IMG/VR virus record: IMGVR_UViG_3300046169_000074
Span: 1 to 54,237 of that record
Strand: one strand, 5' to 3'
Length of the DNA stretch: 54,237 nt
Origin: a virus
Taxonomy: Duplodnaviria; Caudoviricetes
Part shown: positions 12,804-29,797 of the stretch, piece after piece
How positions within the stretch are numbered: the first letter of the stretch is position 1
Layout: the number at the start of each line of letters is the position of its first letter
The notes under the pieces: generated by a model
Database searches by the model: none
Told to the model about the DNA's origin: nothing
The model's input: only the letters and a program-made list of their open reading frames with translations
Position numbers and translations under genes: made by a program

Positions 12804-12811
12804 CTATTTAA

Positions 12812-13120
12812 TTAAAATGGTAAGTCATCTTCTTGAACCGCGGCTTTTTGAGGCGCTGGTGCTTGACCATCTCTAGGTGCTGTAGCAACATTATCACCGT
12901 TAGTCCATACAACACGTACGTTACCTAAGTAAGTTTTAGCTGCTTTAGCCTCACGTTCTTCTTTGGTTTGCTCTACGCATACAGGGCCTTGATTACCGAA
13001 CTGATCAGGCTCATCGTTTAATGTAACTGTAATAGGTAGGTACTTACCTTTTTTACCGTTAATGATTTTGTCTTTAGGAATCTCATTGAGATTAATTGAC
13101 GTTTTAATAATACTTGCCAT
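12812..13120 (-). CDS. Single-stranded DNA-binding protein
   Basis: Acidic C-terminal EDDLPF tail; adjacent to the helicase. Confidence 0.7.
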   Translation of the reverse strand: MASIIKTSINLNEIPKDKIINGKKGKYLPITVTLNDEPDQFGNQGPVCVEQTKEEREAKAAKTYLGNVRVVWTNGDNVATAPRDGQAPAPQKAAVQEDDLPF

Positions 13121-13123
13121 ACT

Positions 13124-13369
13124 CTACTGTTTAATTAAGGTTACTAAATTTCTAACTTGTTCTACCGACGCACCCGTTGATCGTCTGAAGTTATCAAACT
13201 TTTTGTGATAAGGATGAAGTCCGTTACGTGAGTTTCTATTCATATAGAAGTTGTCACTGTTTGCTTTGTACTTGTTGCCTGAAATAGAACAGGTCATCAT
13301 TTTTGCTCTTGCCATTGGTTTTGGGTTTAAGAGATTAATAAAAAATTGACTTATTGATTGTTTATTCAT
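13124..13369 (-). CDS. Hypothetical protein
   Basis: 81-aa ORF directly after a class I motif. Confidence 0.6.
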   Translation of the reverse strand: MNKQSISQFFINLLNPKPMARAKMMTCSISGNKYKANSDNFYMNRNSRNGLHPYHKKFDNFRRSTGASVEQVRNLVTLIKQ

Positions 13370-13372
13370 ATA

Positions 13373-13407
13373 TATAATATCTTTAGGTAATCGTATTTAT
13401 ATTGTAA
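13373..13407 (-). promoter_or_regulatory. Class I promoter-like motif (ACRA-N7-ACGA-N8-AGATATTAT)
   Basis: TTACAATATAAATACGA-TTACCTAA-AGATATTATA. Confidence 0.75.
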
Positions 13408-14053
13408 TTAGTATTTTAAGGCTTTACTAATCAAAGGAAACTGATCTTTAAATATACTTTTAGCTTCCTTAGCAACTAACTGTATTTCTTTCTGAGCATG
13501 CTCGTCATCTCTAAGCTGTAGGAAGTGTATCCAACTTCTAATACTACCAGTCATAAATATTTTAGTTTTAGTAGTCAGCGGTAGTATCATCCTAGCTTGC
13601 TCTCTAGCTACGCCAGCGTTTAATAATTCTACATATAAAGATTTTATAGCGCCCAACATACCGTTTATAACTTCATTAGCGTTAGTTGTAGCGTGAAACC
13701 TTATAGTAGGATTAAATACCTCCGTAGATGACTGCCTATTGTCATCACACTGCTTACGTAACTCTATAGGTTCAAACATTTCATCTAACTTGTTTACATC
13801 TTGGTATCGTTGACTAAACTCTTGAAATGTAAATGATCGATGTCTTATAAGCTGTATACCTATTGCTTTGCTAGTATTTATTTCTAATGTTAAGTAGCTA
13901 TGCTCGAAAGGGGCTGAAGTGCTTATGATTGATTAAATAATTTATAAGACCCTCTGGTTTAGCTTTCTTATCCTTACGACTACTACTAACTCTAGCTATT
14001 TCGACTATATTATCTTCAGCGTTAGGTGTAACTGATTGTAGTTTCACATTCAT
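13408..14053 (-). CDS. thyx: Flavin-dependent thymidylate synthase (one extra base near 13910)
   Basis: HFSPFEH, RHRSFTFQEFSQRY (RHRx7S), EQARMILP, HAQKEI; span is 646 nt = 3n+1. Confidence 0.9.
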
Positions 14054-14055
14054 AG

Positions 14056-14788
14056 CTATAATGTTTTAGTTAGTAAATATTGATTTGTATCGAAGTCTTC
14101 TGTCTTGTAAAACAAGTCGTAAGCATCACTAGCTTTACGTACTTTATCTTCGCCCTGACCTATAAAAGCTATCTGAACAGTCAAATAAACCTACTTGATG
14201 AGTGTTTTTATCTATAACTATAAATATCATTTCGTAACCAAACAACTTATTATAAATATAAGCTTGACTATCGTAGTTGTATTTAGACGCAGACCATTTA
14301 AACTTATCTATATCACTGGTAGTTTTAAGATCAATAACTAATTGCTCTTCGTGGTTAATTATATCAGCCTTACCCTTCCATTTATTTCCGAATATCTCTG
14401 TAACAGCTGGCTCTTCGTATGTCACGTCACCTAGTAGTGGTCGTATAAGATCTTTACAAACATCGTTACTCATCACAGCATCCATCATCAACTCTATATT
14501 ATCAACCTCGTGTTGTAATAGACAAACTTCACCACCAGAAAGTTCTTTATATACTTTAGTATTACGAGTTGAAGCTTCGATGATTTTAAAACTCTTTAGT
14601 TTATCAGGTTCTAATATAGCCGTATGGAAATAACCTCCGACAGCAAACGCTGGATTATTACCTTTAGGTTTATTAAGCTCTTTAGGGTTTTTTAGTAAGG
14701 CACTTATGTTTGAATTACTTAAAAACTGTTGACCAAACTCTCCGTAGTAATGCTCATCATCTCTTAATTTGTCTATAATATCCTTCAT
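14056..14788 (-). CDS. RecE/PD-(D/E)xK-like exonuclease (one extra base near 14153)
   Basis: LSNS, GGYFH, KGKAD, IDLKTT, YDSQAYIY; reading continues to TAG at 14056 in the shifted frame. Confidence 0.8.
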
Positions 14789-14789
14789 A

Positions 14790-15320
14790 CTAGTTCTTTA
14801 GTTTCTTACGTTGATCAGCTGTTACAGCGTATTTAGCTTCTATAGCAGCAATATCACCACCACCTTTAACAAACTCTATTGCTTTAGCTAATTGATCATT
14901 AGTCATCTTCTTTTTAGCTGGCTTGCTATCGTGTTTGTTGGTAGCGTCTGCATCCTCAGTATCATCAATTAAGAATAGGTTACCTAAAGCGTATTTTTTA
15001 CCGTAAGTAGATGCGGCACCAAATTGCTGAGACGTTTGCATACCTTTTTGATTAAGGTCTACACCGACTATTGCTGTTGCTGTAATTGAGTTTTCGCCAT
15101 CTGATATTGTGGCTGTAGATTGCATCATTGGTACAGGGTCAACGCTAATGATTTCTTCATTAACTGTTACGTACACATTATGCTTTACTAGGAACGGTTT
15201 TACCGCTTCGAGGATGTCTTCAGCTTTACGGAAGTAGTACTTACCGAAGCTATTGTACGAAGACTTTTTAGCTTTTAATTCAGTCTGAACGACTGCTAAA
15301 GTTTTGGTTAATTTAGTCAT
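14790..15320 (-). CDS. ERF-family single-strand annealing protein
   Basis: EDILEAVKP, QQFGAASTYGKKYALGNLFLIDDTEDAD. Confidence 0.85.
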   Translation of the reverse strand: MTKLTKTLAVVQTELKAKKSSYNSFGKYYFRKAEDILEAVKPFLVKHNVYVTVNEEIISVDPVPMMQSTATISDGENSITATAIVGVDLNQKGMQTSQQFGAASTYGKKYALGNLFLIDDTEDADATNKHDSKPAKKKMTNDQLAKAIEFVKGGGDIAAIEAKYAVTADQRKKLKN

Positions 15321-15344
15321 TGGCTTTTGGTTTATCGGTACCTA

Positions 15345-15372
15345 TATAATCACATATAAGGCCCCTAATTTA
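15345..15372 (-). promoter_or_regulatory. Class II promoter-like motif
   Basis: TAAA-N15-GTGATTATA between sigma and ERF genes. Confidence 0.6.
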
Positions 15373-15392
15373 ACATTTATTTTTAACTTAAA

Positions 15393-16148
15393 CTACAGGT
15401 AATCAACCACTTGCGAGTGCGGTACATTATCTATTAATTTGTCTATAGCTTGCTTTTTTAACTGTGAAACACGTACGTAAGAGCTAGTACCTTTAATACC
15501 TAAAACTTCAGCTATCTCTTTAGCGGAATACTTACTACAGTCTAAACCGTAAGATAATCTCAATACTTGATATTCTTTAGGGTTTAAATGCTCCATCATT
15601 ATACTTTTTAAGTATGCTAGCAATATATCTTTATTATATTCTTTAGCATTATCAGGTATATCATTAAAAGTGTTATTATCATCAGTATTATTATCTAAGC
15701 TTAAAAACACCGAATTAAAAAACAAGGCAACCATTTTTTTATCCTCACCGAAATCTTTACGTATTTCGTTTAGTTTATGCTCTGGTATACGCATAGTACC
15801 TCTATTCATATCAATAGCTCTTCGTATTGCACCACGTATACGTTTTGCTAAAAAAGATTTTAGTCTTTGTTCTTGATCTTCGGCTTCGCATATAGTATTC
15901 CAGTTGATTCTATCAACAGCTTGTATTAAACCTAAATTACCTTCTTGTATAAGATCATTTATAGTCATAACACCTGAAGCTTGTTGAGCTGTGGAAAACT
16001 TACGTGCTAAATTCTCTACCAAAGGTAAAAACTTAACTATAAGTTGATCTCTAGTGTATTCATGAAACTCTCTACGAGGGAGAAGCTCAATACTTTCGCT
16101 TACATCATTTTTATATCTTAAATAATTTTGTATATTATATTTCTTCAC
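15393..16148 (-). CDS. Phage sigma70-family RNA polymerase sigma factor (group 3-like)
   Basis: LPLVENLARKF, DLIQEGNLGLIQAVDR, RIRGAI, MRIP, region 4 KEIAEVLG...RVSQLKKQAIDKL. Confidence 0.9.
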   Translation of the reverse strand: MKKYNIQNYLRYKNDVSESIELLPRREFHEYTRDQLIVKFLPLVENLARKFSTAQQASGVMTINDLIQEGNLGLIQAVDRINWNTICEAEDQEQRLKSFLAKRIRGAIRRAIDMNRGTMRIPEHKLNEIRKDFGEDKKMVALFFNSVFLSLDNNTDDNNTFNDIPDNAKEYNKDILLAYLKSIMMEHLNPKEYQVLRLSYGLDCSKYSAKEIAEVLGIKGTSSYVRVSQLKKQAIDKLIDNVPHSQVVDYL

Positions 16149-16783
16149 AATGTTCCATTTAATAGTTCTTTTTCTCTTTTTAATTCGTTACATATATTAC
16201 GATGAATTGTACGTGTAGAACAGTCTAATAAACTTGCTAGACGGCTTATCGTGATCTTTTTTCCCATATCGTTAATATCTATCATACATTGATAAATATC
16301 ATCAGGATGGATCCGTTTTTGACGACCTATTAAACCACCTACTATACTTAACTTTTCAGCTTTATCGATACCTATACCTTGTTTAAATATAACCTTACGT
16401 AGTTTATTCTTAGGTGGAGCATCAAGATCAGACATGTAAACGTCATGTATAATTCTATCTAACGATGCTTCAGATATTGTAAAGGTACAAAAACCATTTG
16501 ACTTATCAGCTATAAATTCCGATAAATCTGTAAAATCATCTGTAGTCAACCTAGGATTTAAATACCAAAGCACTAATAAGTGCCATTTTAAACTCTTAAA
16601 AGTATTTATCTTTGCCTTGCTTTTAAATAAATCATAAGCAGAATATGTACCGTCAGCGTAAAACCAATATTGATTTGTTTCTATAGTAGGTTCTTCTAGA
16701 CTTGTATTTGGGTCTAACCTAGTTATAATTCTTTTACGATGTAACCATTCAAAATTCCTTGATATATTTAAGTTTTGTGACAT
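16145..16783 (-). CDS. Protein with C-terminal helix-turn-helix (regulator or replication initiator)
   Basis: KITISRLASLLDCSTRTIHR; overlaps the sigma start. Confidence 0.65.
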   Translation of the reverse strand: MSQNLNISRNFEWLHRKRIITRLDPNTSLEEPTIETNQYWFYADGTYSAYDLFKSKAKINTFKSLKWHLLVLWYLNPRLTTDDFTDLSEFIADKSNGFCTFTISEASLDRIIHDVYMSDLDAPPKNKLRKVIFKQGIGIDKAEKLSIVGGLIGRQKRIHPDDIYQCMIDINDMGKKITISRLASLLDCSTRTIHRNICNELKREKELLNGTL

Positions 16784-16821
16784 TAGCCAGTTACTATATT
16801 ATTAATTAGGCTTTTGTCACA
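16776..16821. repeat. 46-bp palindromic site, copy 1 (inverted relative to copies 2 and 3)
   Basis: TGTGACAttaGCCAGTTACTatattaTTAATTAGGCtttTGTCACA; covers the HTH gene ATG. Confidence 0.85.
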
Positions 16822-16903
16822 GTCGGAGTGTAACGTTGCAATGATAATCCGCTTAGAATCATCACCTTGAGGATATTTAATTTTATTAAATTCCTCTATT
16901 TTC

Positions 16904-17374
16904 TTAATTAGGTCTTCTTTCATAAATAGTTTCTTTATTAGGGTTTGCAACTGTATTTTTTTCGCCTATGTAATAATTCCAATAAGCCTCAACACTACAT
17001 TCAGCTTTATACTCATCAGGCATACACTGAGGTGGTTGTGTTAATAATTCCATTGGTATACCTTTAGGTATTTGCCATAAGTGCTTACATTTAGTTATAG
17101 ATAAATGCTCTTTACCGTATCTATTTCTATATTCCTCACCTAAGCCCATCATATGTCTGTATAACCAAGAATAGTTACTAGCATTCTCACGCGTCCATTT
17201 TGTTGAAGGGTGATTATAATGCGCTTTCTTATAAGGTATATCTACACTACTTTCATAATGATGATGTGCAGTACATAGCATTTGTGCAGATTCTAAGATC
17301 ATTTTAACTACATGCTTATTATATTGTAGCCTCGCAGCTTCAAACGGATCTTCATCTAAGTAAAATATATTCAT
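16904..17374 (-). CDS. Pyrimidine-dimer DNA glycosylase (DenV-like) family protein
   Basis: MNIFYLD, KHVVKMILESAQML, HPSTKW, EYRNRYGKEH, QCMP. Confidence 0.75.
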   Translation of the reverse strand: MNIFYLDEDPFEAARLQYNKHVVKMILESAQMLCTAHHHYESSVDIPYKKAHYNHPSTKWTRENASNYSWLYRHMMGLGEEYRNRYGKEHLSITKCKHLWQIPKGIPMELLTQPPQCMPDEYKAECSVEAYWNYYIGEKNTVANPNKETIYERRPN

Positions 17375-17535
17375 TCGTTCCAGCGTTTTATTATGTTAAT
17401 AACTATGAAGGCGTTAGCAATAATAGCTTGTAGAACTATAATTGTTCTAAATATAGCTACTCTATCAGCTTCTTTGTTAGTTTTACCACTTTTTTCACCA
17501 AGGGCTCTAGCCCAATGTCTCCATAAGTATCTCAA
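17371..17535 (-). CDS. 54-aa membrane peptide
   Basis: TTG start, WRHWARALGEKSGKTNKEAD followed by a hydrophobic stretch. Confidence 0.55.
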   Translation of the reverse strand: MRYLWRHWARALGEKSGKTNKEADRVAIFRTIIVLQAIIANAFIVINIIKRWNE

Positions 17536-17643
17536 TCTTCATATATTTTGTCTAACAGTTGTACAGCAACTCTTAGAGTTATTTTTTCTTCTTCGTATAG
17601 TTTTTGAACTAATTTACTTATCTTCATACGCTTTATTTGACTT

Positions 17644-18546
17644 TTATTCATAATCTCGTATACATTTAAACAAAGGGTGTCGGTAACTACCAGCTTTAGT
17701 ACGTTCGAAGTACGTAAAGGTAGCTGTTTTACCAATCCATTTTTGCATTTGTTTGAAATTTGTTTGTAACTTTTTGAAATTATCCATTACAGGCATACCA
17801 AATTCAATACCGTTAGCATCAATAGCTAGAAATTTACCGATAGTACCAGTTCGTTTACCTTTACCTTCAACCCAGCCAACTATTTCAGCTTCAGAGTCAT
17901 GGAAGTCTTTGAATTTACGTAAACTATGAGATCGTTTAGACTGATACTCAGAGTTAGTACGTAATATAGAACCTTCGTAACCTTTAGCTAAGTTAGACCC
18001 GTGTAGTTGTTTTGCAAACTTTTCAGCCCATACTTCGTGAGTTTCAACGTGTTTTACACAATAAGACTCTGTTAAATTCAACTTAACCCACTCGTCACGT
18101 AGATCAAACTTACCTGACCAGTGTTCAGATTTAGCGAAACGATCTGATAATATAGCATCGTAACAGTGGAACTGAACTAGGTTTTTAGATTCTATTCTGT
18201 GATCCATTGTAGGTTTAGTTTTACGCACACAAGATATAATCTTTTCAAAGTCATCTTTTAGATCGTGGTTGTACAATTCACCGTCAAGAACTACATCTGG
18301 GTTACATTCAAAGAACCATTGTAAACTTTCAAGTATGTGCCGTATGTTTTTCCACTCTTTACCAGTACGTGAATAAGCTTTAATAACAGTACCTAAAACT
18401 ACTGGGTCGTACTCAGCTTGTATTAAGCAACGTACGCCATCAAGCTTTGGTTGAATGAAGTTTTTAGTTTTATAATCTATTGGTTTTTTACTTACCGGGT
18501 AAGCTAGCATTGGTTTATGTCTCATCATCTTGTTCTCCTTCTTCAT
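17644..18546 (-). CDS. ATP-dependent DNA ligase
   Basis: PMLA, QPKLDGVR, LDGELY, YEGSILR, KFKDF. Confidence 0.92.
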   Translation of the reverse strand: MKKENKMMRHKPMLAYPVSKKPIDYKTKNFIQPKLDGVRCLIQAEYDPVVLGTVIKAYSRTGKEWKNIRHILESLQWFFECNPDVVLDGELYNHDLKDDFEKIISCVRKTKPTMDHRIESKNLVQFHCYDAILSDRFAKSEHWSGKFDLRDEWVKLNLTESYCVKHVETHEVWAEKFAKQLHGSNLAKGYEGSILRTNSEYQSKRSHSLRKFKDFHDSEAEIVGWVEGKGKRTGTIGKFLAIDANGIEFGMPVMDNFKKLQTNFKQMQKWIGKTATFTYFERTKAGSYRHPLFKCIRDYE

Positions 18547-18799
18547 TTGGTTTGTTAAATTCTTCAGTTATATTAAGTTTATCAGTTAATTTTTCTATTT
18601 TAATCTTCATTACAGCACATTTTTCATACTCTTCACGATCTAGGTATATGTTTTGTAATGTAACACATCTAGCTAACTCACCTACCATATGATCTCTACT
18701 GTCATGGGTAAGCCAGTCTTCGCCAGATGTCATCATAGCTTTTTTTATCAAGGCATCAGCTACGTATACGCCTAGTTTTTCTAAGTCTTCGTTCGTCAT
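18515..18799 (-). CDS. Hypothetical protein with UVR-like motif
   Basis: EEYEKCAVMKIKI. Confidence 0.55.
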   Translation of the reverse strand: MTNEDLEKLGVYVADALIKKAMMTSGEDWLTHDSRDHMVGELARCVTLQNIYLDREEYEKCAVMKIKIEKLTDKLNITEEFNKPNEEGEQDDET

Positions 18800-18802
18800 A
18801 TA

Positions 18803-18837
18803 TATAATATCTACATCAATTCGTATTTAGATCGTAA
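18803..18837 (-). promoter_or_regulatory. Class I promoter-like motif
   Basis: TTACGATCTAAATACGA-ATTGATGT-AGATATTATA. Confidence 0.75.
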
Positions 18838-19254
18838 TTTATCTGGTTTACCTACAAATAAACAGGTTTTACCTTCAAATATACTAACCCAGAACTCTTC
18901 ACAACCAGGTTTAACCCATATATAGTATACAAAATCAACCCACAACTTCGTTGTTTCTGACTCTAGTATTATTTTAGAGCTAAACTTTTGGTTTTCTAAG
19001 TACTTTATTAAGTTTATTGGAACTCTAGTTATAACATACTCATCAGTATCTTCTAAAAACTTAGCTAATTCAACACCTAAGTAAGCAGGGAAACCATCAT
19101 AATGTCTATATATTTGATAGGTTTCAGGCTTTTTAGGTCTTTCACTGAACGAAATACCTGGTTCTCGCTTAGCAAATCTTATTATTCCTTTAGTCGACAT
19201 ATTTACCTTTTTTATAGCCAAATGAGAATATTTGATCATTATCAAGCATTTCAT
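18811..19254 (-). CDS. Hypothetical phage protein
   Basis: YRHYDGFPAYLG motif; true start may be MSTKG. Confidence 0.6.
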   Translation of the reverse strand: MKCLIMIKYSHLAIKKVNMSTKGIIRFAKREPGISFSERPKKPETYQIYRHYDGFPAYLGVELAKFLEDTDEYVITRVPINLIKYLENQKFSSKIILESETTKLWVDFVYYIWVKPGCEEFWVSIFEGKTCLFVGKPDKLRSKYELM

Positions 19255-19365
19255 TTAGAAATTTATACTCATTAGTTAACCTTGGTCTAATACAGTACTT
19301 CGTTGAGTAAATTACTTCTTCTGAATGAGCTCTTTCAGTATAAAAAAACTGTACTAAATACTTTT

Positions 19366-19677
19366 TCATACTTCAAAATCTTCAACGTTAGCACCCATTT
19401 TCTTTAACATATCTACAACTGTACCTGGTAATTCAAACATACCATCATAATCAGTCAGTAGCTCACTAGAGAACCATAAACCACCCTCAGCGTAGTAGTC
19501 GTTACCTCCGCTCTCTTCGTCGTAAAGCTCAAATCCGCCGTTTTCATTGTCTTTATCCCACCATACCTCGTAATTCATAGTTTTACTCTCTGGCTTAGTT
19601 CCATTAAATGACGTTTGGTAATTAACATACTCAACTTCCTTGCGTTTTTCACTTAAAATATTAGATTGTTTTTCCAT
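19366..19677 (-). CDS. Hypothetical acidic protein
   Basis: 103-aa ORF, YAEGGLWF...DYDGMFELP. Confidence 0.6.
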   Translation of the reverse strand: MEKQSNILSEKRKEVEYVNYQTSFNGTKPESKTMNYEVWWDKDNENGGFELYDEESGGNDYYAEGGLWFSSELLTDYDGMFELPGTVVDMLKKMGANVEDFEV

Positions 19678-19990
19678 AATTGTCTTTGTAAATAGGTATT
19701 TGAGTTCTATACCTTTTGATTCTACTTAATTTTTCAGCTTCTGCTTTTGCGATGTTCTCTTGCTTGATCTTTTGTTTGTTGCGTTTGAAGTCTATTTGCT
19801 CTTGAATTAGATCTGAGTTGTAATACTTTTTAACTTTATCGAGCCTCCATTGTACATCTCCGATCTCTTCGATGATCTCTGGCGTTAAATCTTTGCTAGA
19901 CTTGTTAAGTTGTTGCGTTATAACTGTAGCTAACTCTAGAAGTTCTTCAACTAGTTTTTGATGATCTTTTAAGTTTTTACCTATATCCAT
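19661..19990 (-). CDS. MazG-like pyrophosphatase domain protein
   Basis: KLVEELLEL...IIEEIGDV. Confidence 0.6.
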   Translation of the reverse strand: MDIGKNLKDHQKLVEELLELATVITQQLNKSSKDLTPEIIEEIGDVQWRLDKVKKYYNSDLIQEQIDFKRNKQKIKQENIAKAEAEKLSRIKRYRTQIPIYKDNYGKTI

Positions 19991-20080
19991 TACTCATCCG
20001 ATGTGTTATAAGCTACTATACATATAATTCCGACACTAAGTGCTGTAGCTATCATTAATAATAAGTGCATAATTTTCTGT

Positions 20081-20272
20081 TTAAAGGTTTGCTTTTTTAA
20101 TAAAGTGATTCGCTACTTGTGGTATATGCTCTTTGTAATACGGTTGCTCATCTTTACACCACATACGTACCTCGTCTTTTGTTTTAAATGTTTGGTAAGG
20201 AAACGTCACTTCCAGACTTTCAATAAAGTCAGACACGTGCCAACCTTCCCAAATGTGTTTATCGTTTTTCAT
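20081..20272 (-). CDS. Hypothetical protein
   Basis: 63-aa ORF with A-rich leader after tRNA-like element A. Confidence 0.6.
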   Translation of the reverse strand: MKNDKHIWEGWHVSDFIESLEVTFPYQTFKTKDEVRMWCKDEQPYYKEHIPQVANHFIKKANL

Positions 20273-20285
20273 AGTTTTATTTATT

Positions 20286-20387
20286 TAGTGCTCAAGGGTG
20301 GATTCGAACCACCACTTCCAATTACTACTTCCGTATCTACCCGCTTAGTTCATAGTTGTAGCGCTCTATCATATCAGAGTCTTGAGC
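20286..20387 (-). ncRNA. tRNA-like element A with expanded anticodon loop
   Basis: Acceptor GCTCAAG/CTTGAGC, D-like CTCT/AGAG, GCTAC/GTAGT stem around about 29 nt, T arm GGTGG-TTCGAAT-CCACC, 3' ACTA. Confidence 0.65.
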
Positions 20388-20470
20388 CGTAAGCCTTATT
20401 TCTTCTCCATTAGACAGGATTATATAGGGACCTGAATTGCGAACCTTAAAGTTTGCTTACGTAACGTTTG

Positions 20471-20617
20471 CTGTAGGGGAAGGACTCGAACCTCCACGTA
20501 GCGGTTAGCTATAGGACAAGTTGTGCACAATGGTGGTCAACCCGCTATCCTAAAGTTTATTCCGTGATCTACACCCCCGAGACAGGAGGGCACGTCTGCC
20601 AATTTCGTCACCCTACA
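20471..20617 (-). ncRNA. tRNA-like element B: GTC anticodon, Leu-type D arm, about 78-nt variable arm
   Basis: Acceptor TGTAGGG/CCCTACA, ACG-AAATTGGCAGA-CGT, CCCTC-CTGTCTC-GGGGG, GGAGG-TTCGAGT-CCTTC. Confidence 0.75.
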
Positions 20618-20755
20618 ATTAGCTTAGAATAAACCTATCTTTTTACTAATTCCTCTTGAATTTCGTTTGTATCTTTCATAATTTTACTTTATTTTGCTTA
20701 ACTTCTACTGCCGCTATAACGAATACAGCGATTATACCTGCTATATAGTATGACA

Positions 20756-21031
20756 TTAGTCTAGTAACACCATATAAGCTTCCGCATTATTATGTCTAAA
20801 CCAGTCTAAACCTCTTCGAAGATCTTTGACAGCTTCATTATACGAGTCTGTATGTGGATTCATACGTTCAGTCCACATAGTAGCACCCATCACCATATCG
20901 TATATAGATAGTTCTATTGCGTTTAGCTTTATACTTTCTCTACTAAATGGGTTTGTACATACTGCACCTTCTGTATAAACCTCACCGTTGAACCATTTAG
21001 GTACTTTTTGTTCTTTAGTATTAGTCTTCAT
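20756..21031 (-). CDS. Hypothetical protein
   Basis: 91-aa ORF in the early cluster. Confidence 0.6.
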   Translation of the reverse strand: MKTNTKEQKVPKWFNGEVYTEGAVCTNPFSRESIKLNAIELSIYDMVMGATMWTERMNPHTDSYNEAVKDLRRGLDWFRHNNAEAYMVLLD

Positions 21032-21407
21032 TTTCTATTGAGCTTATAATTTGTAAGTGGTTGTCTAATATATTGCTTTGTATTCTATTCGCTAAGCTTT
21101 CTACAAGATAGCTTTCAACGTTGTAACTATCTACATTTATAGTGTTGTCGTAGTCAATGCTTAATTCTACGTTAATATCATCGCTGCTTAAGCTATCTAA
21201 CTCTGATTCAACGGTTTCGTAAATACAATCTTGTATCTCATCCCACTGCTTATCAGTCATAGATGGTTTATTAGCTAGTTTTAAGTCTTTATGAAGGTTA
21301 TCACTAAGCTGTTTAGCTGCGCCTAACTGTGTAGCTAAGTCTCTTATTACTTCGTCTTGTTGAGTTATTTTAAGCTCTAACTCATCAGCTGTTTTACTCT
21401 TGTACAT
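21021..21407 (-). CDS. Hypothetical coiled-coil/acidic protein
   Basis: 128-aa ORF overlapping neighbours. Confidence 0.6.
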   Translation of the reverse strand: MYKSKTADELELKITQQDEVIRDLATQLGAAKQLSDNLHKDLKLANKPSMTDKQWDEIQDCIYETVESELDSLSSDDINVELSIDYDNTINVDSYNVESYLVESLANRIQSNILDNHLQIISSIENED

Positions 21408-21591
21408 ATGTTAATCCTTTATAGTTAATCCATTCTTCAACGCCTGGCGTGTCTTGGTAGTCAATGCAACCGAAGTTGTTAGGTGTGTTACCAACCTCGT
21501 AAGGTCGCCATTTAGTAGTATAAACTATACCAGCTATCTCGTTGGTTACTAGCATTCTACCGGTTTCTTTGTTAATTTTTAGTGTCTGCAT
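21394..21591 (-). CDS. Hypothetical protein
   Basis: 65-aa ORF downstream of a class I motif. Confidence 0.6.
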   Translation of the reverse strand: MQTLKINKETGRMLVTNEIAGIVYTTKWRPYEVGNTPNNFGCIDYQDTPGVEEWINYKGLTYVQE

Positions 21592-21606
21592 TTGTTTTTC
21601 GTTTAT

Positions 21607-21641
21607 TATAATATCTTTGAGTGGTCGTATTTATATTGTAT
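21607..21641 (-). promoter_or_regulatory. Class I promoter-like motif
   Basis: ATACAATATAAATACGA-CCACTCAA-AGATATTATA. Confidence 0.75.
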
Positions 21642-21642
21642 A

Positions 21643-22218
21643 TTAAGTTAAATTATACCTGTGACCGTCAATAATTACTTGAACCTCTCTTGCGCTACAT
21701 AAATCTTTTTCTAAAGTTAAGTAGTCCGAAAGTAAAGCATCATACTTCTCTGATAAAATATCATAGTCTCTAGCTGTCTTTGTAGGTAAATTATTCATTA
21801 CATAAGAATCTATATGGTATAAAGTTTTACCTTTATAGTAATTCTTCAGTATATAGTTGGCTAAGTAAATGATTCTGTCTTCTTCTCTGTTTATTAATAT
21901 ACGCTTAACTGACTCGTAAGACTTATATTTCTTAGTGAAATTGCAGAAATATTTTTTAGTATGTAAATACTTCTTGTTAATCTGATAAGAACTATGACCG
22001 TATTCACTACAATTTCTAACGTAACCCGAAGAGTATATAGCGAATTTTAACTTTGTAGTTTTACCAGTTGAAAACAATCTCTCTGCAGGTATTTGCCACA
22101 TTCTTGTACCATTCTTTTGTTGAATTTTCGATGTAATTTCTTTAATACCGAGTACATCGAACAAAGCTAGAGCTTCGTGGTGCGACTTTACATACTCGTT
22201 TTCGTAAGTTTGTTTCAT
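21643..22218 (-). CDS. Hypothetical protein
   Basis: 191-aa ORF, no recognised motif. Confidence 0.6.
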   Translation of the reverse strand: MKQTYENEYVKSHHEALALFDVLGIKEITSKIQQKNGTRMWQIPAERLFSTGKTTKLKFAIYSSGYVRNCSEYGHSSYQINKKYLHTKKYFCNFTKKYKSYESVKRILINREEDRIIYLANYILKNYYKGKTLYHIDSYVMNNLPTKTARDYDILSEKYDALLSDYLTLEKDLCSAREVQVIIDGHRYNLT

Positions 22219-22535
22219 AAGTATAATATTTTTTCAATTCTTTCTTTTTCACTCTGGCTTAGCGTACCGTAGTACTCGTAGTAAAACTCATCTAGTGATA
22301 AATTACCGTTACGATCACCATTTTCGCTTAATTCTACAAGCAGATCTTCTGCCTTACTCCACATTTCGTCGTAATTATCCATACTATTTAGTTATATAAA
22401 ATCCTTGTTCATGGTTTGCCTCAGAAGCGTTTAGCTCAGCTAGTATTTCTTGTGCGTTTTCTTCATCTAATCCTTCTCTAATTACTTGCTCCCAGTCTGA
22501 AGTTTTGGAGCAGCATACAATTTTGTACTTGTAAA

Positions 22536-22739
22536 TCATATCTCTTTAATTTTAGTGTTAACGTTTTCCATTGCCATTCTGTAACCTGTATTCATACTCA
22601 TCTGCATGAGAAGTAAATCCATATTACCGTGATTAGCTTTAGCGAATTTCTCTAAGTAGTCTCTGTTAGGAGCTGCTACCATAGATCTTTCAAGCCTACC
22701 GAGCTCTCTGTCGATGTATTCTGTTAGTTCTTTATTCAT
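22536..22739 (-). CDS. Hypothetical protein
   Basis: 67-aa ORF with A-rich leader. Confidence 0.55.
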   Translation of the reverse strand: MNKELTEYIDRELGRLERSMVAAPNRDYLEKFAKANHGNMDLLLMQMSMNTGYRMAMENVNTKIKEI

Positions 22740-22897
22740 GACTAATTTTTATTAAGTTAATTTCTTCGTTTATCATGTCTAATCTTGACATACCTTCTAG
22801 TGTTTCTACTTCGCATTCCCAGCAAGTGCCACACTCTACTTGTTCTCTTAACGTTTCTAACGCTAGTATTAGTAAATCTTTGTTCATAATTTTAATT

Positions 22898-22941
22898 TAG
22901 TGGACATGGTAGGAATCGAACCTACATTAACCATTATGCCC
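22898..22941 (-). ncRNA. tRNA-like element C (acceptor stem plus T arm only)
   Basis: GGGCATA-ATGGTTAAT-GTAGG-TTCGATT-CCTAC-CATGTCC-ACTA. Confidence 0.6.
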
Positions 22942-23054
22942 TTAAAAGCTATGTTACTCGTCAGTAACTCCATCTCCAGCGGAAGTTTCGTGGTTCCTAG
23001 TTGCACTTAGTTCCATGTCTACTACATGGTTCCAGACCTGTGAGTGTTTTAGCC

Positions 23055-23264
23055 TTACCTTAAACAAGTACCGTAACCTTTACGTCTACCTGCTTTATAC
23101 AAAGCGTCAGCAGTTTCTTGACTAACTATTTGTATTGTGTTACCTGTCTTGTGATTGGTGATCGGTGCACAAGCATATCGCTGTGTACGTGAACAACCTA
23201 TACAAGTTGTATACCCTAAGTCTAACCGTCCTTGTGGTATCTCTGTGTTACATTTACATTTCAT
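23055..23264 (-). CDS. DksA/TraR-like C4 zinc-finger protein
   Basis: CKC..EIPQGRL..GYTTCIGC. Confidence 0.55.
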   Translation of the reverse strand: MKCKCNTEIPQGRLDLGYTTCIGCSRTQRYACAPITNHKTGNTIQIVSQETADALYKAGRRKGYGTCLR

Positions 23265-23267
23265 ATA

Positions 23268-23302
23268 AATAATATCTCAGAGTGATCGTATTAGTTTTGT
23301 GA
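23268..23302 (-). promoter_or_regulatory. Class I promoter-like motif
   Basis: TCACAAAACTAATACGA-TCACTCTG-AGATATTATT. Confidence 0.75.
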
Positions 23303-23455
23303 TTTGAACGTACTTGGCCAGTCACCACAGAAGTCATAACATGCTTCACATACGTCATCTTCGCAAAGGTGCAGAGGTGCAGAGCAAATACTACACTCAG
23401 ATGAGTTATCGTCTTCAATAAACTCAGTAAAATAAGTCTCGTTGCTGTTCTTCAT
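23291..23455 (-). CDS. 54-aa Cys-rich acidic peptide
   Basis: CSIC...CEAC read by hand. Confidence 0.5.
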   Translation of the reverse strand: MKNSNETYFTEFIEDDNSSECSICSAPLHLCEDDVCEACYDFCGDWPSTFKSQN

Positions 23456-23644
23456 ACTCTTGTATTTGTATATTTAAATACTCTATTTCCCACTCGTCTC
23501 TGTTCTCTTTGATCTTATCTGTAGTAAGTTGCATATACTTTTACTCCTTTTTTAGTTTCACAAATTAGTTTATCTTCTTTCTGTATAACCTTTTCCGTTA
23601 CTTTTGGTTTATACTTAGGGTTCTTGCTGTTTAGTTTTCTTTTC

Positions 23645-23806
23645 TTACTCATTGTCTTCAAAGCTGTTAAAGGATAATATTAGTGCCATTAATGTTACTG
23701 GTGCTACGGCAAGGAACATAATCTTACCTGTCTGATTGAACAGCATCACCATTGAGGAGCATACTATAATAAGTATTAGTCCGTAGTAAAAAGCTAGTGC
23801 TTTCAT
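23645..23806 (-). CDS. 53-aa two-TM membrane peptide
   Basis: MKALAFYYGLILIIVCSSMVMLF...MFLAVAPVTLMALILSF. Confidence 0.55.
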   Translation of the reverse strand: MKALAFYYGLILIIVCSSMVMLFNQTGKIMFLAVAPVTLMALILSFNSFEDNE

Positions 23807-23945
23807 AGTTTTAGTTTAGTTGTTAGTAAAAATCGTAGTATATATCTAATACTTTCTCTCTTTGAGCTTTCGTTAGTCTGCTCCAATGCTCGTTGAATAG
23901 TTGAAAACCTATTCTTAATACTTTTCCATTCATAATTTATAATTT

Positions 23946-24023
23946 TAGTGATAGCGTGAGAATCGAACTCACCAATACTCCAAGACTACCTGTTGTATAT
24001 ATTTCTGCGCCGTGTTATCACTA
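23946..24023 (-). ncRNA. tRNA-like element D (T arm plus acceptor-like stem, degenerate core)
   Basis: TAGTGATAAC/GCTATCACTA stem; GTGAG-TTCGATT-CTCAC; 3' ACTA. Confidence 0.6.
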
Positions 24024-24105
24024 CTTTAATAAGTGCACCTCGACTTACGATCACTACAATACTTGTTCATATTTGATTACCAGTAAACAAGTGGAACTAA
24101 CTGGA

Positions 24106-24336
24106 CTACTTCTTCCACCATGGGTTATATGGTTTCTTGTAATTTAACTCGTAGTACTTCGCGTACATTTGCTCAGCTTCGATCTTATAACCATCACTTG
24201 ACAACTTATCTATAGTGTCAAATATTTGGCGATGCTCTCGACTACCGCTTTTGTAGTCACGGTGATCGTCTGAGTAACCATAGAGCCAATCGTGTGATTC
24301 GAGCTGACTCTCGAGTGTTTGTAATAACTTACACAT
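24106..24336 (-). CDS. Hypothetical protein
   Basis: LESHDWLYGYSDDH motif. Confidence 0.65.
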   Translation of the reverse strand: MCKLLQTLESQLESHDWLYGYSDDHRDYKSGSREHRQIFDTIDKLSSDGYKIEAEQMYAKYYELNYKKPYNPWWKK

Positions 24337-24337
24337 G

Positions 24338-24577
24338 TTACTCTACAACTACTGCTTCTGACTCACGAAGAACTTTTGGTAAGTTTCCACTCGCAGTGTA
24401 AGATTTGTACTTGTCCCAGCAAGCCATTTGCTCTAAAGAACCTTTCATAATCTCGAACGCTTTGTCGTGAGAATAAGTAACTGTGTTACCGTTTTTGAAT
24501 GATACTTCAATGTTAGTATCTTTTCCGATTAGAGATTTACGCACTACGAATCTCTTTGATTTAAGTAAATTTGCCAT
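24338..24577 (-). CDS. Early protein, paralog of 25011..25232
   Basis: KRFVVRKSLIGKDT...HD...MACWDKYKSYT. Confidence 0.75.
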   Translation of the reverse strand: MANLLKSKRFVVRKSLIGKDTNIEVSFKNGNTVTYSHDKAFEIMKGSLEQMACWDKYKSYTASGNLPKVLRESEAVVVE

Positions 24578-24622
24578 AACTTATTGATTTTTATTTAGTT
24601 ATTAATTGTTTTTAGTTACGTT

Positions 24623-24657
24623 TATAATATCTACACTTGTTCGTGTTTAGTTTGTAA
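24623..24657 (-). promoter_or_regulatory. Class I promoter-like motif
   Basis: TTACAAACTAAACACGA-ACAAGTGT-AGATATTATA. Confidence 0.75.
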
Positions 24658-24747
24658 AAGTAGTAGATTTGTTTTAGTGATAATTTTTAGCTAGCAGGTA
24701 CTCCACCACTTGTCTCAATGAGCAATAATACTTCATTTAGTGAATAG

Positions 24748-24794
24748 TGTGACATTAGGCTACTAATATAGTATAGTAACAGGCAATTGTCACA
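24748..24794. repeat. 47-bp palindromic site, copy 2
   Basis: TGTGACAttaGGCTACTAATatagtatAGTAACAGGCaatTGTCACA. Confidence 0.8.
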
Positions 24795-24933
24795 GTTTAT
24801 CAAGAGATCTTATTGCTTGAAATAGTGCAATGATCGAAGTGATAGCAGTTAATAGAAAACCTGTGTGATGAGTGATCCACAAATGTGAAGCAAACAGAGT
24901 TAGGTACAGTGTAAACATGTGATACTTTTGCAT
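24790..24933 (-). CDS. 47-aa hydrophobic peptide
   Basis: MQKYHMFTLYLTLFASHLWI...FLLTAITSIIALF read by hand. Confidence 0.5.
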   Translation of the reverse strand: MQKYHMFTLYLTLFASHLWITHHTGFLLTAITSIIALFQAIRSLDKL

Positions 24934-25010
24934 AGTAATTTATTTTAAATAATTAGTAATGATCGCGTGTGATACTATGATCGCCGATGTGAGTAGAATA
25001 AAGATCGCCA

Positions 25011-25232
25011 TTAGTCAACGATCTTCATGTCTCTACAAAAAGCTGGCATTGCATTGCTATTCGTATATGATTTATACTTTGTAAAGCAATTCATACTTTC
25101 GAACCTCTCCTTGTGAGCGTTGTATACTTCGTCGTGATTATACTTCACGTTCTCACCCTTCTTGTTGGTGAATGTAATAATAGTGTCTTTGCCAATTAAT
25201 GACTTGCGAATAACGAATCTTTTTAATTCCAT
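25011..25232 (-). CDS. Early protein, paralog of 24338..24577
   Basis: KRFVIRKSLIGKDT...HD...MNCFTKYKSYT. Confidence 0.75.
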   Translation of the reverse strand: MELKRFVIRKSLIGKDTIITFTNKKGENVKYNHDEVYNAHKERFESMNCFTKYKSYTNSNAMPAFCRDMKIVD

Positions 25233-25260
25233 AATAGTGTTTGTTTATTTTAGTTACGTT

Positions 25261-25295
25261 TATAATATCTGTTGTACTTCGTTTTTAGTTTGTGA
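25261..25295 (-). promoter_or_regulatory. Class I promoter-like motif
   Basis: TCACAAACTAAAAACGA-AGTACAAC-AGATATTATA. Confidence 0.75.
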
Positions 25296-25296
25296 A

Positions 25297-25458
25297 TTAC
25301 TCGATTGCTTTTAATTTTTCTAAGAATAAGAACATACAAAACCCAGAACTGAAAGCTATTGCGTAGAAGATTGAATGCTCTGCCATGCCGAGCCATAGAG
25401 CTACGAGAGTTGAGAATAAGCAGAAGAAGAATGCAGCGTAAAGTAAGATAGTTTTCAT
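25297..25458 (-). CDS. 53-aa two-TM membrane peptide, first gene of the leftward block
   Basis: MKTILLYAAFFFCLFSTLVALWLG...IFYAIAFSSGFCMFLFL. Confidence 0.6.
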   Translation of the reverse strand: MKTILLYAAFFFCLFSTLVALWLGMAEHSIFYAIAFSSGFCMFLFLEKLKAIE

Positions 25459-25481
25459 AAGTAGTTTATTTTTGTTACATA

Positions 25482-25516
25482 TATAATATCTAATTCGCTT
25501 CGTAGCGAGATCGTGA
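25482..25516 (-). promoter_or_regulatory. Class I promoter-like motif
   Basis: TCACGATCTCGCTACGA-AGCGAATT-AGATATTATA. Confidence 0.7.
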
Positions 25517-25519
25517 AAG

Positions 25520-25579
25520 TAGGGGTGGGTATAGAGATTGCGTTTTGGTATAGGGGTGGGGTGGCTTAAAGGTAGGGGG
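25520..25579 (+). repeat. G-rich direct repeat (TAGGGGTGGG x2 plus TAGGGGG)
   Basis: Copies at 25520 and 25551; G run at 25575. Confidence 0.7.
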
Positions 25580-25634
25580 CTACACTTTAATTATATATAT
25601 ACAACATCCCTAAAAAAGGGTACCCTATAAAAAG

Positions 25635-25680
25635 TATGACATTAGCCTAATTAAGTATAGAGTAACAGGCTAGTGTCACA
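25635..25680. repeat. 46-bp palindromic site, copy 3
   Basis: TATGACAttaGCCTAATTAAgtatagAGTAACAGGCtagTGTCACA. Confidence 0.85.
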
Positions 25681-25683
25681 CTG

Positions 25684-25712
25684 TAAATAATTAGGTGATA
25701 CGTGTAACTATA
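25684..25712 (+). promoter_or_regulatory. Class II promoter-like motif heading the rightward block
   Basis: TAAA-N16-GTAACTATA. Confidence 0.55.
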
Positions 25713-25736
25713 CTACTGAACATTAAAATACATGTT

Positions 25737-25886
25737 ATGCCTTTTGGAAAAAGTAAAAGTAATTATAAAAAGATGATGCGTAAAGAGAAGCGAGCACATA
25801 ATAAAGCTGCACGCCAAACATTTCGTGAAGATCATCCAGGGGCTTTAAAAAGATTATTCGGAGCTTACAAAATAAAAAATAAATAA
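25737..25886 (+). CDS. 49-aa basic peptide
   Basis: MPFGKSKSNYKKMMRKEKR... Confidence 0.55.
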   Translation: MPFGKSKSNYKKMMRKEKRAHNKAARQTFREDHPGALKRLFGAYKIKNK

Positions 25887-25887
25887 A

Positions 25888-26667
25888 ATGGCTAAATACG
25901 CTTTAATAAGATCTAAGGATGAAATGACTGGCATTAAGAATGCTAATCACGATTTCTCTACAAACGACACAACTGGTTGGGCTGTAGGTAATGATAGTGC
26001 CGTAACTATTAGTGTGAGTGATAACAAACTTACAGTTATGGATGCTACCTCAGGTACCGCTAGTGGTTTGGGTTTCCAAAGTACTAGTTCAAATATACTA
26101 CCTCATAATTATATGTTTGAGTTATCTTACAAAATAACTGAAGTCATAGGTGAAATAACTTCTGTAACAGTATCTCAGGGTAGTGCGGGAGCATTAACCA
26201 TACCGACTACTGCTGGTGAGCATACTATTAGAGGTCGTTACCAAGCCGCTGCCCAAGGTGATGTGGGTGAATTAAAGTTCTATATCAACAGTGCTGTAGC
26301 TAATAGCGGTTTGACTTTTGAATACATATCAGTAAAGGTTATAAATTTCCTTAGTACTGGTACTCACTTGCTACCTACTGAGGGTATTATAACTGGTGTA
26401 GAGGATGACTCAATGATAACAACTGAAAACACTAACGAAATAGGTTCCGCAACCTCCTCCTTGTTGACTAATACTGGTGGTAGTGTGCTTAAAATGGCAA
26501 CACCAGGTTTTACTGAAACTATTGAGGTTTTCCACGAACCTGACTCAAGTAGAAAAGCTACAAACTCTATAATAAAAGCCCTAGCCAAAGCTAGTGAGGC
26601 TAAAGGTTTGTTTTACGATATAACAGACGAAATTAGTACAAATATAAGATACATTGAAATAGCATAA
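25888..26667 (+). CDS. Hypothetical beta-rich protein with CBM-like segment
   Basis: NHDFSTNDTTGW...EYISVK. Confidence 0.6.
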   Translation: MAKYALIRSKDEMTGIKNANHDFSTNDTTGWAVGNDSAVTISVSDNKLTVMDATSGTASGLGFQSTSSNILPHNYMFELSYKITEVIGEITSVTVSQGSAGALTIPTTAGEHTIRGRYQAAAQGDVGELKFYINSAVANSGLTFEYISVKVINFLSTGTHLLPTEGIITGVEDDSMITTENTNEIGSATSSLLTNTGGSVLKMATPGFTETIEVFHEPDSSRKATNSIIKALAKASEAKGLFYDITDEISTNIRYIEIA

Positions 26668-26669
26668 TT

Positions 26670-26978: not shown

Positions 26979-26979
26979 T

Positions 26980-27099
26980 ATGAAGAAGCGTAAGAAAAAG
27001 TCACCCTGCTGGTCAGGCTACGAGATGATAGGTATGAAGAAAAAAGGTTCTAGAAAAGTACCTAACTGCGTACCTAAGAAGAAAGGTAAAAAGAAATAA
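26980..27099 (+). CDS. 39-aa Lys-rich peptide with CWxGY...VPNCVP motif
   Basis: MKKRKKKSPCWSGYEMIGMKKKGSRKVPNCVPKKKGKKK. Confidence 0.65.
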   Translation: MKKRKKKSPCWSGYEMIGMKKKGSRKVPNCVPKKKGKKK

Positions 27100-27119
27100 T
27101 AATAAGTAAATATATAGAC

Positions 27120-29794: not shown

Positions 29795-29797
29795 GAT

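Follow-up and report, generated by a model that had tools for sequence, protein, structure and literature searches.

A clade-wide, multi-copy promoter-like element in the leftward gene block of a marine phage genome and its possible reading with a phage-encoded sigma factor

Promoter sets that are read with the help of a phage-encoded sigma factor are known from several phages, and include those of SPO1 gp28 and gp33/34, T4 gp55 and phiEco32 gp36. Classically, with SPO1 and phiEco32 as examples, the early promoters are read by the host enzyme, and the phage sigma factor acts later. Another kind of promoter does without the -35 element and makes use of activator boxes, as is the case for the T4 MotA-box middle promoters and the PhoB pho-box promoters. 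The present analysis deals with a repeated element, here termed class I, in the leftward gene block of the phage genome held as IMG/VR record IMGVR_UViG_3300046169_000074 (Duplodnaviria; Caudoviricetes). The window, as it is called below, is the whole stretch of 54,237 nucleotides (nt) that was analysed; it is the entire record, linear, with a CheckV completeness estimate of 84%. Its seven class I sites appear to be local variants of a promoter element that is spread over a whole clade, and it is tentatively proposed that they are read by the host core enzyme together with a sigma factor encoded by the phage itself.

Yet another way of reading early genes is described for the crAss-like phage phi14:2. 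There, early transcription is carried out by a packaged polymerase, gp66, and the early genes are reported to be transcribed without the use of host-type promoters (10.1101/2020.03.07.982082). An earlier reading of the window, made from its letters alone (the sequence-only reading), had started from the packaged polymerases of crAss-like phages. It regarded the phage as crAss-like and class I as the promoter of a packaged, crAss-type double-psi-barrel RNA polymerase (RNAP) encoded outside the window, which would form a two-tier cascade with the sigma factor.

Class I sites in the window and across the clade

The pattern ACRA-N7-ACGA-N8-AGATATTAT matches the window exactly at seven places, every one of them on the minus strand (Table 1), and it was not met in any of 100 dinucleotide-preserving shuffles. 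When up to two mismatches are tolerated, the same seven sites and no others are recovered, against a shuffle mean of 0.08. No eighth copy was found in the window with a matrix built from the relatives at a lenient threshold, and the plus strand gave none. The seven minus-strand copies with exact spacing that the sequence-only reading had described are therefore borne out, its coordinates lying one base low. Towards the divergence point near 25.6 kilobases (kb), the distances between neighbouring sites shrink from 5430 to 2804, 1661, 1355, 638 and finally 221 nt, so that the rise in density described earlier also holds. Within the sites, successive boxes start at distances of 11 and 12 nt, in agreement with the description of boxes about one helical turn apart.

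Six of the seven copies occupy short gaps just ahead of (5' to) open reading frames (ORFs) of the minus strand, and the copy at 18804 overlaps the final ~25 nt of the upstream ORF. At 13374, 18804 and 23269, an ATG is found four bases past the motif. The leftward block itself runs from 25.5 to 5.9 kb, with small ORFs of unknown function first and the genes for DNA ligase, a DNA-binding protein, sigma, Erf, exonuclease, primase/helicase, ThyX, MazG, resolvase and ribonucleotide reductase later. The earlier claim that the motifs are promoters oriented with this early/replication block is supported. It is proposed that the seven sites would be the complete set of one promoter class driving the block, in which small early ORFs would be followed by recombination, sigma, replication and nucleotide-metabolism genes.

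The relatives were studied in 80 loci of at most 20.8 kb each, taken around sigma homologues of 58-79% identity. With a matrix made from the seven window sites, 310 sites were found on the sigma strand of these loci and none on the opposite one. A family matrix rebuilt from the first hits, which is dependent on the first matrix and has the opposite strand as its control, gave 423 sites on the sigma strand and a single one on the opposite strand over 1.26 megabases. Motif conservation among relatives, which the sequence-only reading had put forward as a check, is thus found as a strand bias of 423:1 over the 80 sigma loci. Judged by sequence, the window motif is a local variant of a clade-wide promoter element.

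The consensus of 255 distinct sites opens with a tT-ACAAAC box and, past a linker of 3 nt, an AATACGA box; a variable stretch of 8 nt follows, then a genome-specific base, GATAATAT and an A/T-rich stretch. Its summed information is ~51 bits. The exact window pattern occurs in no relative. The hexamer at -12 to -7 reads GATATT at all seven window sites and GATAAT in the relatives; that is, the -8 base is T at 7/7 window sites against A at 253 of 255 family sites. At -12, the family sites carry an invariant G, and not T. The base just before the hexamer (-13) is fixed for each genome, being G, A, C and T in 16, 14, 7 and 4 genomes, respectively. In the first box, G stands for A throughout the loci L070, L086 and L082, and in the second box, A or T stands for G in L042, L088 and L081, with A also in G007 and G010. 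Since the variants at -8 and -13 are concerted genome-wide, a reader that co-evolves with its promoters is suggested.

The sigma gene is accompanied by the motif or by a close variant in five of five further complete genomes, as well as in G1, the closest complete relative (67,128 base pairs (bp), collinear with the window), and in G4, another complete relative. No class I-like site was found in two sigma-less relatives, the uncultured podovirus MW202828 (full record) and the Flavobacterium phage elemoF (first 32 kb). In G1 and G4, the GATAATAT octamer with its boxes is absent from the late strand, and the regions upstream of the late genes bear other motifs.

Start-site geometry and possible readers

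The open complex of sigma-70-family holoenzymes has a known geometry, in which a -10-like hexamer is followed by a 6-nt discriminator and a purine start. The geometry of class I looks like that of such a sigma-dependent bacterial enzyme. Seven bases past the hexamer, a purine is found in 254 of the 255 distinct sites, and the base before this putative +1 is a pyrimidine in 204 of them. An ATG that opens an ORF of at least 40 amino acids (aa) is present within 200 nt of 391 of the 423 sites. The sharpest peak is formed by 58 of these 423 sites, at which the ATG starts exactly at the purine seven bases past the hexamer, and a broad second peak lies 24-28 nt past the hexamer. From this family geometry, the +1 positions of the window were predicted (Table 1). 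At three of the seven window sites the predicted +1 is the A of a start codon, and such a coincidence, there and elsewhere in the family, would imply leaderless messenger RNAs. For the 81-aa ORF at 13369, the promoter-proximal ATG is the real start, because conserved N-terminal residues precede the next in-frame ATG. The homologue of this ORF in G1 starts 22 nt further downstream and has a 22-nt leader; the window is without an ATG at that place. The 69-aa ORF of copy 4 has 85% identity to its counterpart in G1 over residues 1-69.

The consensus holds no -35-like hexamer at 17 +/- 1 bp, and a generic promoter scan left the class I sites unflagged. The nearest look-alike of TTGACA is TTACAA, 20 bp upstream, and the positions -35 to -30 read CAAACT. 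The two conserved boxes, which are spaced by one helical turn, span about -38 to -32 and -28 to -22 and stand in place of a normal -35 element. Taken together, we infer that each class I site would be a promoter for a bacterial multisubunit RNA polymerase, with a -10-like hexamer at -12 to -7 and transcription starting at the purine seven bases downstream. A role other than that of a promoter was also considered, namely that the sites are binding sites of a regulator, or RNA-level processing or translation signals before genes. Two direct boxes one helical turn apart do resemble tandem transcription-factor sites, and the motif abuts start codons. Nevertheless, such a role is very improbable in view of the strict orientation (423:1), the invariant -10-like hexamer, followed at a constant 7 nt by a purine at which ORFs start, and the consensus, in which no conserved self-complementarity is found; besides, no other promoter-like element is available for the seven units.

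To weigh the possible readers, the host has to be considered. It is probably a member of the Bacteroidota, because Shine-Dalgarno cores are scarce in the window (1 of 80 genes), because the structural relatives infect Flavobacteriaceae, and because Flavobacteriaceae hosts are predicted for marine phage genomes including phi38:1 and GroEL- and sigma-bearing members (Nishimura 2017, PMC5332604). We take this group to be the neighbourhood of the present clade. Cellular homologues of the sigma factor were tried as a further clue to the host and set aside, as they turned out to be only phage-like contigs binned into metagenome-assembled genomes of many unrelated taxa.

The Bacteroidota promoter type, with its -33/-7 consensus, is plain 5' of the phi14:2 middle genes g070, g075, g108 and g110 (TTG, ~19-21 nt, TAnnTTTG). 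It is also present in intergenic regions of the sigma-less elemoF, within its first 32 kb. In the window, the full pattern (TTG, 17-22 bp, TAnnTTTG) was met 4 times against 5.85 expected, always inside ORFs, and TAnnTTTG within 80 nt upstream was found for 1 of 81 genes against 3.9 expected; no enrichment of the pattern was seen in G1 or G4 either. By these counts, the window genome appears to be without host-type Bacteroidota promoters. No class I site matches the type, just as the sequence-only reading had held.

The phage encodes a sigma-70-family factor of its own (Table 1). This protein scores 76 bits against TIGR02937, the cut-off being 42.9, and aligns to SigA regions 2-3 and 4. Its homologues amount to 124 confirmed matches in IMG/VR viral stretches; none was found in the GenBank phage collection, and no cultured member with the sigma is known there. 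In primary sigma factors, the Q and T of region 2.4 read the -12 base. The region-2.4-like helix of the phage factor, as placed by the SigA alignment, reads F99..K102 R103 I R/K G106. I R109 R110 and has G and R at the positions of this Q and T. These two residues, along with F99, K102, R103 and R110, show no variation among all 41 distinct family members. The altered region 2.4 fits the invariant -12 G of the promoter, a match that is suggestive but no proof.

It is against this background that class I is tentatively assigned, with a chance just short of even, to the host core enzyme carrying the phage sigma, possibly with a 212-aa helix-turn-helix protein helping at the boxes. The assignment is made because the motif is unlike the host promoter type, which the whole genome lacks; because the sigma-less relatives are without the motif, elemoF using host-type promoters; because sigma and motif co-occur in all the complete genomes checked; because the -12 G fits the altered region 2.4; and because the promoter sets vary in concert within each genome. 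The 212-aa protein is encoded upstream of sigma in 74 of the 80 loci and is a candidate co-factor or regulator of sigma. Its structural model has a predicted local distance difference test score (pLDDT) of 87. Among fold relatives of the model none was significant, the best E value being 0.55 and the top extracytoplasmic-function (ECF) sigma chains having a probability of at most 0.1.

Several points weigh against the phage sigma as the reader. Four class I sites are crowded into 2.3 kb where the block begins, before tiny ORFs, which gives them a classical early look, and class I sites are also found upstream of the sigma gene itself. As the sites are early-like and upstream of sigma, a sigma-dependent reading needs a separate starter. 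The first sigma molecules may come from a separate host-readable start, for which a quasi-palindromic element 5' of the sigma operon is a candidate. The association of sigma with the motif compares one clade with two outgroups and is, phylogenetically, a single event. No clean signal of covariation was found between the -13, -36 and -23 bases and the residues of sigma or of the 212-aa protein. For the -13 base, the best sigma columns are merely the most variable ones; the locus L087 has the same region-4.2 helix as L070 and L086 but A, not G, at -36; and the helix-turn-helix residues of the 212-aa protein do not correlate with the promoter variants. The only RNA-labelled runs with parts of the region, available as contigs with shares of 0.05-0.13, gave scattered pieces over 12000-27500 with no 5'-end or strand information.

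Part of this would suit a reading in which class I sites are early promoters used directly by the host holoenzyme, with its primary or another host sigma, and the phage sigma serves the later rightward genes. The layout is typical of an early region, as the sites crowd at the divergence point, the ORFs are tiny and some sites precede sigma, and in the loci L070, L083, L084 and L086 a class I site is present directly 5' of sigma. The geometry fits any sigma-70-family holoenzyme, covariation of the promoter with the phage sigma is lacking, and the other motifs of the late strand in G1 and G4 would offer a second specificity for the sigma to serve. It is reported, moreover, in the work on phi14:2 that the Cellulophaga RNAP transcribes the sigma-70-type T7 A1 promoter of a coliphage in vitro (10.1101/2020.03.07.982082), which leaves room for the host holoenzyme and is one more point against the phage sigma. 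We nevertheless consider the host holoenzyme unlikely, though a serious contender. Of the 6 bases that the Bacteroidota -7 element specifies, the motif has just 2-3, and its upstream box is 20 bp from the hexamer; the sigma-less relatives that infect Flavobacteriaceae rely on the usual host promoter type; and ~51 bits along with genome-specific concerted variants would be unusual for host-read promoters. The two-tier cascade of the sequence-only reading survives in part: such a cascade involving the sigma remains likely, but the sigma may read class I itself and not the next tier.

A polymerase of the kind envisaged by the sequence-only reading was searched for as well. No RNA polymerase was found in the window, and none in the complete relatives. 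With tblastn at E<=1, the phi14:2 proteins gp65, gp66 and gp67 found no counterpart in the window, G1 or G4; their sole match was a chance-level one of gp65 (E 0.38) in the outgroup MW202828. The domain PF00940 is absent from five relatives that are 97-100% complete, a weak negative since the control genomes were silent too. The crAss-like premise is not supported either: the terminase and portal match PHROG families common to Flavobacterium, Cellulophaga and Tenacibaculum podophages (32-47% identity), and by the tests run, the phage seems to stand outside the crAss-like group.

The rest of the genome, where a large RNAP had been suspected, is represented by the relatives, as the window is without the stretch that matches ~28.0-43.6 kb of G1. 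That stretch holds a giant ORF of 2575 aa in G1 and 2992 aa in G4; its remaining genes are tail fibres or of unknown function. Searches of PDB sequences, PHROGs and Pfam returned no match to the giant ORF of G1, and in a protein atlas it is found only among viral hypothetical proteins. A model of its conserved C-terminal 981 aa, built on an alignment of 26 rows, reached a mean pLDDT of 67 and a predicted template modelling score (pTM) of 0.38. It contains an alpha/beta domain that matches HAD phosphatases, the T4 Pnkp phosphatase among them (probability up to 1.0, E 0.035-0.17), then ~650 all-helical residues and a small cysteine-rich end, with no barrels. For the N-terminal 1594 aa, there are 132 homologues; among the 120 listed, no polymerase family is present, while Zeta_toxin/AAA_33 kinase families occur in some and a lysozyme in one. 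On the model and these homologues, the giant virion gene looks phosphatase/kinase-like, and a packaged crAss-type polymerase is not what the searches return. DxDxD motifs of the giant proteins were set aside, as they sit ~36 residues before the C-terminus, outside any barrel context.

Nonetheless, an injected virion-borne polymerase or initiation factor, with the N-terminal ~1600 aa of the giant protein as the candidate, deserves mention as an improbable reader of class I. A genome with no host-type promoter anywhere would suit it, as would a giant ORF of no known family in the very region that the window is missing. A precedent is given by the packaged polymerase of phi14:2, but the transcripts of that virion RNAP are reported to have no common motif, and the hexamer/+1 geometry of class I is that of a sigma-dependent enzyme. 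The sigma-less MW202828 has a 3859-aa ORF and seven hairpin repeats before its early genes, a likeness to the N4 virion RNAP system; the searches for gp65, gp66 and gp67, for PF00940, for barrels in the modelled part and for polymerase families among the listed homologues, all given above, tell against the proposal. A related view, to which we allow a small chance, is that the whole programme runs without the host primary sigma, the phage injecting its sigma, the helix-turn-helix protein or an unrecognised polymerase module of the giant protein with its DNA. If this were true, class I would fire at once on the host core or on the injected enzyme.

Feature coordinates, other repeats and genome context

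Table 1. Coordinates of class I copies, of the quasi-palindromic element and of the proteins discussed (window positions unless stated otherwise; the extent of a class I copy includes the predicted +1)
Feature	Exact match	Extent	Strand	Details
Class I copy 1, nearest the divergence point	25483-25514	25478-25514	minus	Predicted +1 G 25478; heads 53-aa ORF 25297-25458
Class I copy 2	25262-25293	25257-25293	minus	Predicted +1 G 25257; heads 73-aa ORF 25011-25232
Class I copy 3	24624-24655	24619-24655	minus	Predicted +1 G 24619; heads ORFs 24338-24577 and 24106-24336
Class I copy 4	23269-23300	23264-23300	minus	Predicted +1 = A of ATG 23264; 69-aa ORF 23055-23264, predicted leaderless
Class I copy 5	21608-21639	21603-21639	minus	Predicted +1 A 21603; heads ORFs 21394-21591, 21021-21407 and 20756-21031
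Class I copy 6	18804-18835	18799-18835	minus	Predicted +1 = A of ATG 18799; 94-aa ORF, predicted leaderless; unit goes on through DNA ligase, DNA-binding protein, 212-aa helix-turn-helix gene, sigma, Erf and exonuclease
Class I copy 7	13374-13405	13369-13405	minus	Predicted +1 = A of ATG 13369; 81-aa ORF, predicted leaderless; unit goes on through primase/helicase, ThyX, MazG, resolvase and ribonucleotide reductase
Phage sigma-70-family factor, 251 aa		15393-16148	minus	phrog_351 4e-27; Pfam Sigma70_r2 and r4; TIGR02937
212-aa protein, C-terminal helix-turn-helix		16145-16783	minus	Stop overlaps the sigma start; weak HTH_11 match
Quasi-palindrome copy		16776-16819		Just 5' of the 212-aa/sigma operon
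Quasi-palindrome, second copy		24744-24799		~100 nt upstream of class I copy 3
Quasi-palindrome, third copy		25637-25685		Divergent region between the gene blocks
Quasi-palindrome, half copy		20745-20793
Giant virion-region protein		L091 9644-17371 = G1 29644-37371

The quasi-palindromic element named above has arms of 11-18 nt that are ~20 nt apart. By a strict pattern it is present in 31 of the 45 loci listed, typically ~650 nt upstream of the sigma start, and it holds -35-like and -10-like hexamers in both directions. It may be a second promoter type and could be a host-readable starter of the sigma operon; it may as well be an operator of the helix-turn-helix protein or an RNA stem. One contig of run X16 joins 16793 to 24774 and skips 7980 nt, the joint being exactly at two copies of the element; the contig stems either from a recombinant relative or from misassembly at the repeat.

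Other motifs are seen in the late block. Intergenic regions past terminator hairpins (plus strand, 39561-39600 and 40340-40400) carry ATGTAAY and then a TATAAT-like stretch, as do G1 16650-16700 and 37380-37410. This combination may be a late promoter class. The idea that the A-to-T change of the window hexamer is mirrored in the late promoter agreed in G1 and failed in G4, and was dropped. In MW202828.1 (L008/L009; 44476-49906 and 741-12320), a hairpin repeat with a perfect 6-bp stem is present in seven copies ~20 nt 5' of early genes, and the 3859-aa ORF of this record has no family match. The hairpin repeats and the giant ORF are reminiscent of N4-type virion-polymerase systems.

The rightward block of the window holds GroEL, terminase, portal, capsid and tail genes. 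On sequence evidence, the phage is placed in an uncultured marine clade of 63-72 kb phages with structural genes like those of Flavobacteriaceae podophages. The best relative of its terminase is that of MW202828 (65%), followed by the Flavobacterium elemo phages (47%), the Cellulophaga phages phi46:3, phi18:3, phi13:2, phi38:1 and Calle (37-40%) and a Tenacibaculum phage (32%). MW202828 is also the closest GenBank record, with only the structural module in common with the window, and no DNA match to the early block was found in the phage collection. Near-identical DNA is present in seawater and viral metagenome runs of 13 studies. Among related IMG/VR contigs, the giant protein has 389 matches, in addition to the 124 of sigma. 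The HAD-phosphatase-like domain of the giant protein and the Zeta_toxin/AAA_33 kinase domain of many of its homologues bring to mind a polynucleotide kinase-phosphatase module like that of T4 Pnkp.

Some further features of the window and its relatives were recorded. The ribonucleotide reductase large subunit is split on the minus strand into overlapping ORFs, 5910-7163 (417 aa) and 7099-7536 (145 aa), and is a single 541-aa ORF in G1; the split is put down to a frameshift or an assembly error. Two thymidylate-synthase-like ORFs lie on the minus strand at 13408-13779 and 10185-10874. One of them, of 123 aa, matches a ThyA-type PHROG at profile positions 473-583 of 866 only, and the other is ThyX-like. 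Transfer RNA (tRNA)-like stretches on the minus strand at 20289-20387 and 22901-22977 score 26.7 and 24.2 bits against an Rfam tRNA threshold of 29, and ARAGORN made no tRNA call in the window; the first stretch is 99 nt long and may hold an insert, and further T-arm-like ends are seen at 20.4-20.7 kb and 23.9-24.0 kb. The divergent region has a C-rich tract at 25520-25600 with several CCCC and CCACCCC runs, in a genome of 35% G+C, and this tract is not conserved in G1. Among the relatives, the 67-kb 'linear' record G010 (that of L157) has the sigma gene twice near both ends (2276-3025 and 65785-66534), which suggests overlapping ends, and a 129.5-kb record (the contig of L047/L068), also with two sigma genes, is probably two genomes joined.

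Comparison with known promoter systems

An information-rich promoter with leaderless starts would be a precise handle on the takeover of transcription by marine Flavobacteriaceae phages, and class I could be used for annotating transcription units in the metagenomic genomes of the clade. The clade is abundant, with hundreds of related viral contigs, yet it has no cultured sigma-bearing member. No published description of the motif was found by full-text and sequence-word searches, no paper with the 15-base box being among the results and the supplementary promoter tables of phi14:2 lying outside these searches.

Among the described systems, crAss-like phi14:2, a marine Flavobacteriaceae phage, has some features of layout in common with the window. 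Both have divergent gene blocks and GroEL upstream of terminase and portal, and the early genes of phi14:2 are likewise reported not to be read via host-type promoters. The two differ in most other respects: a whole-proteome comparison finds only ribonucleotide reductase, GroEL and two short matches in common, no homologue of gp65, gp66 or gp67 is present, and the genomes of the relatives are of 63-72 kb. Moreover, the early transcripts of phi14:2 are reported to be without a common motif, and its host-type middle and late promoters have no counterpart in the window.

Promoters of T7-like single-subunit RNAPs are a continuous block of ~23 bp through the +1, whereas the 8 nt upstream of the class I hexamer region are variable. 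A likeness of the second box and its spacer to T7-type promoters was considered, but this variable 8-nt gap speaks against it. The hairpin promoters of N4-like virion RNAPs are different too, since the class I consensus has no self-complementary segment; it is MW202828 that has hairpin repeats.

With sigma-70 promoters, class I shares a TATAAT-like hexamer (5/6 in the relatives, 4/6 in the window), an A/T-rich 6-nt discriminator and a purine 7 nt on. It is unlike them in its -12 G in place of T, in the lack of a TTGACA-like hexamer at 17 +/- 1 bp, and in its two boxes followed by an 8-nt variable gap before the hexamer region. The phage-sigma sets of SPO1, T4 and phiEco32 offer a closer parallel, as they also combine a phage sigma-70-family protein with a multi-copy, uniform, non-host promoter in one gene block. 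Those sets, however, read middle or late genes after host-read early ones, whereas class I heads the earliest-looking genes and the sigma gene. The MotA-box and pho-box promoters are alike in having a good -10 element with boxes that overlap or replace the -35 element, and the class I boxes, ~11 bp apart, would lie on one face of the DNA. They are unlike in their activators, as no MotA, AsiA or PhoB homologue was identified here and the candidate reader of the boxes is the 212-aa protein, which has no known fold relative.

Class I thus fails to fit the canonical -35/-10, Bacteroidota, T7-like, N4-like hairpin or crAss-like early type. By analogy with the activator-box promoters, it would work like a sigma-dependent promoter in which the -35 element is replaced by two phased boxes.

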